Positions 130 to 35,065 of a stretch of 64,000 nucleotides of DNA are shown here, in pieces (position 1 is the stretch's first letter; the number at the start of each line of letters is the position of its first letter). Made by a program: the position numbers and the translations under genes. The DNA comes from Eledone cirrhosa (Eukaryota). Where the stretch lies: the NCBI GenBank assembly GCA_964016885.1, contig OZ024742.1, positions 214,396,001 through 214,460,000 of the forward strand, given 5' to 3'. The notes beneath the pieces are model-generated. The model worked only from the letters and a program-made list of their open reading frames with translations, was not told the DNA's origin and did not search any database.

Positions 130-783
130 TATTTATATACGTTTATATAATTAATTGTATATACACACACACAGACATATATATTTTTTATGTGTATTTG
201 GTGTATACGTTCGTATCGCGCGGATTTACGCACATGTGCGTGTGTTTGTGCTTATGTGTATATGCATGTATGGCGTGTCTTTTCGCGCATGCTCGTGTAT
301 GTATGTATATATTTAATTATTATTAATTTTATGATTTTATTAACCTCTGTCATTTTCGTTCTACTAATTTATTTACATTATTCTTAACTCCGAAGTCGAA
401 AATCATTCGGTTTCCTAAATATAATATTAGTCTGAATACTCCATTTATACCATAAACGTGGTTTTGTCTTTGTGTGTATTTGTTCTCACCGCTTCATATA
501 ACGACGTATTATCTTCGCTTTTTTCCGTTCAATGCCAGGGAACGTCTGTATGAACCAAAGTATTGTCTTCCTGTTTTCCTTCGGTTGCAAGGTTTTTTGA
601 AACATTTATTTCTGCGTTCACAGATAGATTTTTTTTAGTTTCAGAAGATCCCGTTAAGGGTGAAAGCAGTGATCTTTGCTTAAACTTTCATCTGTTATTT
701 TAATAAATATTTGCTCTAGGGTTCTTATATATTTGATATATATTTATCATTATCAAGCCCTCTTTGGATTTTAGTCGTCACTT
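130..783 (+). mobile_element. Non-autonomous Penelope-like element, family A (internal region plus pLTR ending at a (TA)n tract)
   Basis: 430-783 matches repeats at 17505-17722, 23413-23828 and 33800-35065; 250-430 is homologous (reverse complement) to 34260-34400; contains a hammerhead-like fold at 637-686, then AATAAA, then (TA)n. Confidence 0.7.
637..686 (+). ncRNA. Hammerhead ribozyme-like fold, family A (non-canonical CAGAAGA core)
   Basis: agttt CAGAAGA t-ccc gttaa ggg-t GAAA gca gtgatctt tgc T T aaact: stem I 5 bp, helix II 3 bp, stem III 4 bp, CUU triplet. Confidence 0.6.
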
Positions 784-989
784 TTATTATTATTACTATA
801 TATATATATATATATATATATATATATATATATATATATAAGAATAAAAATACTAGAGTGTGTTGGAGTTAAACACCCTCTTCGTATTATAGAAATGACA
901 GTAAAGGTAGAGCTCGATGTAATTAAACAGTGCTGAAGAATTGTGAAAATAAACCAAAGAAGCCTTAAATACATCAAAAGTCTTTATTA

Positions 990-1027
990 GCCAACAATGT
1001 TTCGTCCTATTAAGGACTCATCAGGGC
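990..1027 (-). ncRNA. Minimal type I hammerhead ribozyme (family B)
   Basis: Reverse complement reads gcc CTGATGA gtcc ttaata ggac GAAA c att g T T ggc. Confidence 0.85.
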
Positions 1028-30869: not shown

Positions 30870-32281
30870 CAAGTAAGATAAGTCTTGCCAAATTTTAGAC
30901 ATAATGACTTTGAAGACACTTTTTTCAAATATTGATTGCAGTATAATAAACCTTTTATTTTTTATTCTTATGACTTTCTTGTTTTCTCCTCAGATTAATT
31001 TAATGTTATATTGCTTAATAATATGCATTTTAACCCCTACAGATCAGACACATATAAGAAACTGTATGCTGTGGGAATAAAAAAAAGTGCACCTCAGCAA
31101 GAGCCGTAGCTCGGAATATTCTCTCTGTCGATAGAAATAAAGCTCAAACTGTCTCAACATGCCAAGGATGGTTTAAACAATTTCATATTGGACATTTTTC
31201 TCTCAATGATTCTTCTCAATCAGGGCGAGCATGTCCTCTCGATCTCGAGCTTTTACCAAATGTGGTGGAAGAAAGTCCTAAGCAAACTGCACGAGAATTG
31301 GAAAAAGTGTTTAATACACGTCACAGGATTATTGTAAAGCAGCCTTTCGAACTGGGGAAAGTGTCTAAACCTGGCCAATCAGTGCCACATAATCTGGTTG
31401 CTACTCAATTCTTTCCAAGTGTTGCTCTTTGCATTTCATTAAAGAGTAGACTTGCTAATAATTCCTTTGTGGGCAGAATAAAAAGCGGTTATGAAAAGTG
31501 TGTACTGTAAAATAATTGTTTCTACTTTAGGCACACGGCCAGCAATTAACCAGCACATTACTGGTACTTTATTTTATCGATCCCGTAAGGATGAAAGGCA
31601 AAGTTTACTTCTGCCGGATTTGAACTCAGATCATAAAGGGACGTAACTCTATGCTAGAAAGCATGGCGTCCAACCCTCTACCGATACTGCCAATAACCAA
31701 AGAAACAATGTTTATCACCTGGAGAAAAGTGGGAAACTCCCAAACGAGGACTACACCCAGGAACAATTATGCTCTCTTTCTAATGGGATATTTTGAATTA
31801 CGGCAAGACAATTAATGCTGATAATTATTGTCGCCAAGTTGAATTCTTACATCATAATTTGCAGAAAAAGCGACCATCATTGGCAAATCGGAATGTTATT
31901 TTGCTCGTACACAACATTTCGAGATCACATATTGCCCGAATACATAGAACAAAATCCTTACACATAAAATGGAAGTTTTGTTTCACCCTCCATAGTCATC
32001 TGACCTTTCCCCATCGAGCTATCATCTCAGATCATTGTACCATTTTCTAAATAGAACACAGATTACCAAACAAGAAAAGGTAAAAATGGACAATGACTCC
32101 TTCTTTGCTTCACAATCTGAAAGATTGTATGCTAGAGGGATCAACAATTTGCCAGCCAGATGGGATTATTTTATTAAAAATGAAGGAAAATAATATCGTG
32201 ATTGAATATGTCCATTTAACCAAAGTAAACGTTTTTTTTTTTCTTGTCCAAAATGGGACACGAGATTATATCTAACATAAT
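30870..32281 (+). mobile_element. Decayed mariner transposon
   Basis: Remnants WFKQF..G.FSLND...SGR, VEESPKQTAREL, (W)VPHNL, RIKSGYEKCVL (for TGDEKW), GKTINADNYC.Q and an HPP.S.DL.P-like motif; many stops and frameshifts. Confidence 0.85.
31511..31695 (-). mobile_element. tRNA-derived SINE inserted into the mariner transposase
   Basis: Reverse complement matches the SINE; transposase homology resumes on both sides; aataa on both flanks. Confidence 0.9.
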
Positions 32282-33799
32282 AATATATTTTTACTTATTC
32301 AGGCAAAAAAAAAGAAAAGAAAATACGTTCGCCTCCACGAAATGAAGATTAATATGAACACCATTCGTTATGTAGTGTGTATATATGTATATGATGAAAC
32401 GTTAGTTTCAACGGTGTCAGCTCAGCCATTTTTTTTATTAAACATACACACTACTTTCCCAATGGTCTTACTATCTGAACTGGTAACACTCAATAAATAC
32501 ATATTTACACGCGCACGCACACGGACACACGAACTCGCGTGCACACACACACACAGACACACACACACATATATATATATATATATGCTGGAATTTAAGA
32601 TGTCTCCGTTAGTCATATTTCAGCTGCACATATATATTATACTAATATTTACAACCAGAAACAGACATAGAAAAGTCAATTTTGTTGATTAACATGTTCA
32701 GAAAAAGCCATAGATATATCACATAGAGTTACCTCAATGGCAATGGCAATATTAAATGGCAATATTAAATGAATATACTTTAATAGAGATTGAAAATGGA
32801 CACTCGATTCTCAAATGTCAGAGATAAAATTCCATACAGGCAACAGCAATTTGTTTACCTTTACAAACGAATATCGAGCCATAGAATCACAGACTAAGAA
32901 ATGCTAACCCACAATGAATATTCTATGGAAGGTAGTCGATCAATACAAACACAAATACATCAGGCAAACGCACTTATTAAAACTACACAAACAACATATA
33001 AAAATGATTTATATGATTCAAGTTCATACTAACTATAAAATAGATGAACACATTATTAAAATCCTCATGAACAAAACATAAAATTCATTGTACCACACCA
33101 TAATCCAACATTAACTATAAATTAAATGAAACACTACAATTAAATTCTTCCTCGTTCTTAACAAACTACGATTGTGTAAACCCCCGGAACAAGGCACTAA
33201 TGTTCAATATGTTTTATAAATTTGATTACAAAGGTGAAGGTAGCAAATTTCATGACTGCAGCTCTTAAATACACCATACAATTATGCCCCAATCCTGGCG
33301 GCTCATTATGGAACTGCATGATACAATTGTAATGCATAACAGAAAATAGAACTCTATAGTAACCATTAACGAATAACGCTTATTTTGTCGACAGAAATCC
33401 CTACAATAATAAATGATTAATGATGGAAGGAAGGCTCACATTACTACACAATACTAAAGTAAACATAGGCCACAAACAAAACCAACAGCTGAACGAGGGC
33501 ACATAAATCTAACTATTAAAATTGAAATTCCATCAGAAAATTCTGAAGCCATCACATTGGCCCCATCTATCACAAGGAAACAGAAAACACGCCATCGTAA
33601 CTATATTACTGAAACAAAGATTATCAAGTAATGCAAGCGGAGATAATGGATTTATAAATTTTACTCTTCCAAATGGAATACATGAAATTATCCGAAAATA
33701 TGAAAGTGCTGTCTCCTAGATTTATAGTCACAAATGCACATATGTACATATGTATGTGTTTGTATATATATATAAATATATATATATATATATATATAG

Positions 33800-35065
33800 T
33801 AATAATAGTAATAATAATAAATGTGAAGACTAAAATCCAAAGAAGGCTCGATAAGGATAAATATATATCAAATATATAAGAACCGTAGAGCAAATATTTA
33901 TTAAAATAACAGATTAAAGTTTAAGCAAATAATCGCTGCTTTCACCCTTAACGGGATCTTCTGAAACTAACAAAGTCAATCTGTAAACGCAGAAGTGGAT
34001 ATTTCAAAAAACGTTGCAACCGGAGGAAGACAGGAAGACGATACTTTGGTTCGTGGAAACGTTCGCTGGCAAAGAACGGGAAAAAACGAATATAATACGT
34101 CATTAACGAGGTCGTAGACTAATGTTCTCTTAGGTGGTTCATAGAGACGTTCTCTGGCAATGAACGAAAAAAACGAAGATAATACGTCATATGTGGAGCG
34201 TCGAGAACAATAGCACGCAAAGACAAAACCACGTAAATGGTATAGCAGAAGTCGTAGACTTAAATTCTAACTAGGAGACCGAATGAATCTCCGCTACAGA
34301 GTTAAGAACAAAGTAAATAAATACAGTACAGAAGTAATAGAAATAAATAAATACATACACGCAAACAAATACGTACATACACAAGCATACGCAGACACTT
34401 ACCATCGGTATACAAAACCACGCACATATAAATATGTGTGTGTGTATGCATGTATACAAATAAATAAATAATTATATAAACGTATATAAATAAATAAATA
34501 CGTATATAACAAGCGCACACACATACCTACATGTAAATACACGAATGTTCGGAGACGTAAGTCAACCAAAACATGAAGTACACATATACACACACCCTAC
34601 ATACGTATGAACCTGCATACTCACACAGACGCAAAACTCCCGTATACACATAGCCAAACCATATGTACCAGAATATATAACATTATACGCCATAACATAA
34701 ACAATCAAATATACGTACAAGAAGGTATACAACCTTCACAAAACATACGGGTAAAATATACTTACCTATGCAAATAAGTAATGGTATAAACAAAACATAC
34801 TCCACGCTCCAAATATGACGTATTATCTTCGTTTTTTTCGTTCATTGCCAGAGAAAGTCTCTATGAACCACCTAAGAGAACATTAGTCTACAACCTCGTT
34901 TGTACCATTAACGTGGTTCTGTCTTTGCGCGTAATTGTTTTTCACCGCTCCTAGAAATATCCACTTCTGCGTTTACAGATTGACTTTGTTAGTTTCAGAA
35001 GATCCCGTTAAGGGTGAAAGCAGCGATTCTTTGCTTAAACTTTAATCTGTTAATTTAATAAATAA
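33800..35065. mobile_element. Family A non-autonomous PLE-like element with inverted pLTRs between (TA)n tracts
   Basis: Hammerhead-like folds at 33918-33968 (-) and 34991-35041 (+); 34815-35062 is an inverted, rearranged copy of 33895-34240. Confidence 0.8.

Follow-up and report, generated by a model that had tools for sequence, protein, structure and literature searches.

The closest described relatives of the RNA motif discussed here are the hammerheads of Penelope-like elements (PLEs), and in endonuclease-bearing PLEs the role of the hammerhead has been stated to be unclear (PMC8557442; statements on this and the other papers cited refer to the portions of text and supplement covered). 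The motif was found in a 64,000-nucleotide (nt) stretch of the Eledone cirrhosa genome (contig OZ024742.1, positions 214,396,001 to 214,460,000), called the window below and numbered from its first letter. It is evidently a hammerhead-like RNA near the 3' end, in the pseudo-long terminal repeat (pLTR), of a Hydra-clade Penelope-like retrotransposon, and its core carries A instead of U at position 4 (U4A). A purine at this position has been held through four subfamilies by a family with intact open reading frames (ORFs) and more than 17,000 copies, one of the genome's most successful Penelope families.

This A4 family shares with the Hydra-clade hammerheads the type I topology, a site near the 3' end, a U.U apposition in helix II (14 of 26 published motifs) and a cleavage position after U (9 of 26), together with a short helix II, (TA)n targeting and the protein motifs RWK, DKT and CxCx5C (PMC8557442). 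The published Hydra hammerheads have U4, C15.2-G16.2 and a loop III of 0-3 nt, whereas the A4 family has A4, G15.2-C16.2, a 5-bp helix III and a 7-nt loop. By our count by eye of the 26 Hydra rows in File S2 of that paper, all 26 have U4, helix III starts with AC in all 26, and C15.2-G16.2 is found throughout. Hydra-1_Obim, likewise compared by eye, differs from the A4 family in both protein and motif.

The minimal PLE hammerheads (PMC4209133) resemble the A4 family in having thousands of dispersed copies and inverted pairs 100-700 bp apart. They have low activity in vitro and a known core variant, U3-A8; no position-4 variant appears in the portions of text and supplement covered. Having little or no helix III, they need dimers, whereas the A4 family has a full helix III, like the PLEs of fungi and protists. 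Among natural core variants, U10.1.U11.1 and U4C are known, with reduced activity, and the 11 text-held supplements of the same survey, its figures being outside this scope, contain no A4 core; its filter had excluded every sequence with an altered core, most of them as cryptic repeat mutants (PMC3088659). In the published literature searched, which extended neither to Lunse et al. 2017 (small PLE hammerhead variants) nor to supplementary figures, no A4 hammerhead core is reported.

Core position 4 across the family

The 32-nt motif has five exact matches in the window, where none is expected (100 shuffles). Its sequence pairs as AGTTT/AAACT, CCC/GGG and AGCAG/TTGCT, with the U.U apposition and a CUU triplet. 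Three helices surround the core and are open at helix I, as in type I hammerheads, and a descriptor gives 5+3+5 bp. All five copies have C3, G5, A6, G8, A9, G12, A13, A14, A15.1-U16.1 and H17. The type I consensus fails at two points, U4 (A here) and the 10.1-11.1 pair (U.U here). Because it fails at U4, the A4 motif is to be filed, on sequence grounds, as a variant and not as a consensus member of the hammerhead-derived class. No Rfam model matches the A4 motifs of the window at E<=1, and neither Rfam nor CUGANGA descriptors detect this motif.

The initial annotation had singled out three deviations: A4, the U.U at the base of helix II and the CUU triplet. Only U4A stands out, since U.U and U17 are common in the clade while U4 is near-universal there. 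For comparison, 98 related loci were collected from contigs of metagenomes and genomes, 68 with a motif and 30 without, giving 71 distinct outside motifs (descriptor control: one match in three shuffles). U.U is the commonest state both in the published rows and in these motifs (30/71), U17 occurs in 14/71 and C15.2-G16.2 in 68/71. Position 4 is U in 68, with C, G and A once each; the lone A4 case has G17, sits inside an ORF and was judged to be chance. U.U is, moreover, a tolerated natural variant with reduced activity, which gives more cleavage than any other mispair (PMC3088659). Other families of this genome combine G15.2-C16.2 with CUU or CUA, and one of them has U.U together with canonical U4.

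When the 3.0-Gb genome was searched with position 4 left free, A4 was found in 17,350 of 17,523 exact 32-nt matches, and a non-A letter in 173. Flank-anchored copies have A4 in 99/100 among the matches listed. In an unselected 1.06 Mb there are 47 matches, of which 33 cover position 4, with 32 A and one T. Single contigs from the runs X5 and X6 also span the motif with position 4 unaltered, and were given no evidential weight. The earlier proposal that the deviation was already present in the transposing master element is thus well founded.

A looser pattern returned 1,482 CTGAAGA-type matches against 22 in a control. An older canonical CTGAAGA subfamily was considered and rejected: of 20 fetched loci, 18 are inverted junctions at the core and two are unrelated. 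The core-junction loci are mostly palindromes centred on position 4, which is read as T or as A depending on the strand. The ~1,480 apparently canonical matches are therefore mostly fold-back junctions and not revertants, and because such junctions supply T at position 4, counts of CTGAAGA would mislead if taken as a refutation. The genome-wide consensus has A at position 4.

Fold-back insertions centred on core position 4 number ~1,400 genome-wide (e.g., loci L203-L222), and there are 2,089 short palindromes with a junction in or near the motif, both arms often ending at stem I. Fold-back arms ending at stem I also occur in one canonical family.

Judged by its presence in diverged subfamilies, U4A is old. 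It is found in 26/27 copies of subfamily C (loop II GTAATA) and in 23/24 loci that keep stem I (of 30) in subfamily D, the oldest (N7=U, loop II GCTTA). Of 22 old copies chosen by their flanks alone, 21 have A4. Identity between a young copy and the ORF fragments beside old copies is 71-76%, a figure that includes decay.

In the majority sequence of 17 C-type copies, compared with the young copy, the 38 positions of core, stems, U.U and H17 show no change, against 21/99 changed in a set made up of N7, the two loops, and 60 nt of upstream and 24 nt of downstream flank (Fisher p=5.6e-4; recounted without end-gap columns, the raw count being 26/104). Subfamily D differs from the young copy at 1/39 core and stem positions, an extra T beside stem I, versus 40/112 (raw) elsewhere, and its only core change is at N7, the sole free core position of the hammerhead (PMC3088659). 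A G12A master lineage, hinted at by 3/22 old copies, was ruled out: the general base G12 is G in 68/78 D copies, a decay-level loss. C3-G8, G5, A6, A9, G12, A13, A14, A15.1-U16.1 and a non-G17 are thus fixed through four subfamilies, while N7, the loops and the flanks have changed. The only two-sided swap relative to the clade is at 15.2-16.2, G-C here and C-G in 68/71 outside and 26/26 published motifs.

Core and stems are therefore better kept than the flanking pLTR sequence. Because they are unchanged across old subfamilies while the flanks have diverged by ~21%, the fold appears to be under selection with A4 already in place. The stems and core had also been described as invariant beside a variable loop III. 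That contrast appears only between subfamilies and does not hold among young copies, where 30 flank-anchored copies, tallied by eye, show similar decay in core and stems (7 changes in 1,140 cells) and in loop III (2/210).

This last observation fits an explanation in which the motif is a dead ribozyme carried passively: a single U4A event, for which template switching at the TTC-N-GAA quasi-palindrome is a possible cause, would have been multiplied by a successful master, and the invariance would reflect youth. Fold-back junctions at position 4 are frequent (18/20 fetched loci; ~11/50 listed palindromes) and offer a route for A/T flips. We nevertheless regard this explanation as improbable, as core and stems are unchanged, beside flanks that are ~21% changed, across subfamilies that share no more than 71-76% identity in their ORF fragments.

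The host element and its copies in the window

The element copies and motifs of the window are as follows.

281..795, + strand: 5'-truncated element arm with 3' untranslated region (3'UTR), motif and ~110-nt tail, stopping at (TA)n; 74-87% identical to locus L036 (blastn)
637..686, + strand: intact motif; A4 at 643, H17 (U) at 681; loop III one base short; middle-aged subfamily
17499..17727, no strand assigned: fold-back pair, both arms stopping at the stem I/core edge; junction 17571-17576; complete stem I in neither arm
23406..23830, no strand assigned: two truncated arms inserted head to head; junction 23707/23708; (TA)n at both ends
23516..23566, - strand: intact motif in the long-tail arm of the inverted pair 23406-23830; A4 at 23560
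23755..23805, + strand: intact motif in the short-tail arm of the same pair; A4 at 23761
33809..35064, no strand assigned: head-to-head insertion; junction 34801/34802; the minus arm holds most of the 3'UTR, including the unspliced intron
33918..33968, - strand: intact motif in the long-tail arm of the inverted pair 33809-35064; A4 at 33962
34991..35041, + strand: intact motif in the short-tail arm of the same pair; A4 at 34997
41465..41530, + strand: older-subfamily fragment (loop II GTAATA), truncated inside stem II

The five intact motifs belong to three insertions (281-795 and the inverted pairs 23406-23830 and 33809-35064). The five copies first reported were recovered exactly, starting at 637+, 23566-, 23755+, 33968- and 34991+, with the third now placed at 23755-23805. 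Of the two copies described as decayed or partial, the one at 17524-17623 is not simply decayed but belongs to the head-to-head fold-back pair at 17499-17727, joined at the stem I/core edge. The one at 41476-41505 has lost its 5' part and comes from an older subfamily.

The pLTR-type arrangement that had been proposed is seen directly: tandem motifs flank an ORF in L036, where they lie 3,259 nt apart, and inverted pairs occur. One motif lies ~25 nt short of the 3' end of the element; the second is upstream of the ORF. Most of 14 stretches around close motif pairs contain reverse transcriptase (RT) and endonuclease reading frames. A 709-aa frame is open in 5/5 loci checked; it is a single ORF with RT followed by a C-terminal GIY-YIG domain, and YRDD and AYIGL are present.

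The family protein has RWR at 37, SDKT at 114, CNC at 564 (CxCx5C) and the C-terminal CxxC/CxH as CDLC and CKH. The marks of the Hydra clade are RWK, DKT, the CxCx5C linker and CxxC/CxH replacing CCHH (PMC8557442), and the assignment is made because these motifs match; it relies on protein motifs and a comparison by eye with published Hydra proteins. Element insertions at (TA)n and the tandem and inverted pLTR arrangements agree with the clade. The unit of 3,259 nt includes a 750-nt intron, while Hydra-clade elements are generally shorter than 3 kb (PMC8557442).

The family protein was aligned to homologues, one of which matches Pfam GIY-YIG. A Pfam search with three ORF pieces of the A4 family gave nothing, and a PDB sequence search was empty. 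The best database relative of the family protein is 57% identical. For related loci, a scan with the single protein and a scan of viral contigs were both empty. Sister ORFs, 53% identical, lie in the neighbouring megabase, and no hammerhead could be tied to them.

Two alternative element ends, ~25 nt and ~135 nt past the motif, are AT-rich and joined to (TA)n (e.g., window positions 33809 and 35064). Inverted pairs usually combine one end of each kind, as twin priming would give.

The intron is of the GT-AG type and lies in the 3'UTR/pLTR (L036 3434-4183). It has two donors, and its single acceptor is found ~100 nt to the 5' side of the motif. Spliced genomic copies at three distinct loci (L001, L311, L029) and joints in contigs provide the evidence for it, although it is mostly retained in genomic copies. 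A real intron raises the question of whether U4A was selected because the core thereby gained a 3' splice site (polypyrimidine-CAG), in which case splicing would switch the ribozyme off. The sequence indeed reads TTTGTTAG-TTTCAG-AAGA, and the Penelope intron of Drosophila virilis ends at helix I (PMC4209133). However, no genomic copy joins the main donor exon to either motif AG (a count made for the main donor only), and the spliced copies use the upstream acceptor instead (three loci, plus contig joints). We consider this origin of U4A highly improbable.

Proposed slow cleavage and the alternative of a non-cleaving fold

Because older subfamilies kept A4 plus the rest of the core, we lean towards the A4 motif acting as a slow, attenuated, monomeric self-cleaving ribozyme, which we put at somewhat better than even. 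Cleavage would be slowed by a competing hairpin, by the short helix II of 3 bp, by the U.U apposition and by the missing contact between U4 and the A6-N7 phosphate. We propose that, with cleavage slow, most transcripts would reach reverse transcription uncut or after re-ligation. Where cleavage after CUU did occasionally take place, tandem or read-through transcripts would yield RNA of unit length. Given the 5-bp helix III, a monomer would suffice, unlike the dimer proposed for minimal PLE hammerheads. Position 4 does tolerate change: a viroid with the natural variant U4C stays infectious (PMC3088659), and another family of this genome, F7 (loci L282, L231, L388 and others), has a hammerhead with C fixed at position 4, in 10/10 copies covering it.

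Several points weigh against such a ribozyme. U4 makes the contact to the A6-N7 phosphate (PMC3088659), and pairwise mutagenesis of a hammerhead of type III left every CUGA mutant, single or double, with low activity save the C-G swap (PMC9901934). The predicted fold of lowest energy (-8.8 kcal/mol, against -5.5 for the hammerhead, a gap of 3.3 kcal/mol) pairs A4 with U11.1 and differs from the hammerhead, although 3/6 canonical motifs folded alongside also lack the full hammerhead fold. Stem I has a pairing probability of 0.05-0.08, and folding z-scores are near 0. Cleavage may, moreover, be dispensable, given that Naiad PLEs multiply in the absence of canonical hammerheads (PMC8557442). The statistics of the core alone are weak (0/14 vs 21/99, p=0.046). 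Some of the C and D copies had been chosen by their core letters, and the two subfamilies share ancestry and are not independent. Covariation within the family amounts to 0-1 two-sided changes per pair (75 distinct rows), too few to inform.

Copy ends were examined as a possible cleavage footprint. One of 90 falls at the scissile bond, which is uninformative, since no such pile-up was seen by eye in nine control families either. Copy 5' ends do cluster at the 5' edge of the motif: 18/90 lie within -4..+8 (three share one junction), a density of 2.5% per nt vs 0.31% upstream (p=5e-9), and the cluster recurs in the unselected 1.06-Mb sample (10/47).

This pile-up is among the observations that fit a three-way fold which does not cleave, it and its core letters being kept as a putative cis signal that serves the element protein or the processing of RNA (RT loading, template switching or 3'-end formation). 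The weak activity of CUGA mutants (PMC9901934) and the more than 17,000 copies reached with A4 point the same way. So does the existence of U4 copies with intact stem I (36 of the 100 non-A copies listed, by eye) in a family where no U4 subfamily was seen. Yet the pattern of constraint fits catalysis, with N7 free and G8, G12, A13, A14 and H17 retained, and the 5'-edge pile-up also occurs in a canonical-U4 family (17/49); it is hence silent on U4A and was discarded as its mark. We hold a non-cleaving fold to be a tentative alternative, with a chance of about one in three.

Should the A4 motif cleave, A4 will have to be allowed in search descriptors and in the natural core consensus. Should it fail to cleave, the fold would have a non-catalytic role under selection, and PLE hammerheads need not cleave. 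Either outcome would be of use to specialists in ribozymes and transposons, while the novelty is still a one-letter change in a well-known arrangement.

Other hammerheads and repeats

A second hammerhead, with a canonical core (CUGAUGA, G10.1-C11.1), lies in the window at 986-1030 (-) and 2539-2583 (+), within an inverted repeat pair of another family (940-1155 / 2407-2629). Both motifs match Rfam RF00163 at 29 bits, below the gathering score, and a pattern search for this family as a control found only four copies. At least 10 other type I hammerhead families occur in 0.94 Mb of loci from the same genome, many with a palindromic (AT)n helix III, and U3-A8 hammerheads are present there as single copies. 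Hydra-like PLE ORFs with hammerheads were also met on contigs in bacterial genome bins (L184-L202), which are likely contamination from animal hosts.

The window further contains a broken ORF of a different Hydra-like PLE family at 47854-49448 (-), 32-42% identical to the A4-family protein. Two broken elements of the long interspersed nuclear element type lie at 53546-57513 (+), with endonuclease and RVT_1 matches, and at 58588-61841 (-), with RVT_1 and zf-RVT matches; we take them to be L1/Tx1-like and RTE-like, respectively. A GC-rich 48-bp tandem array with variable C runs occupies 25663-26221.

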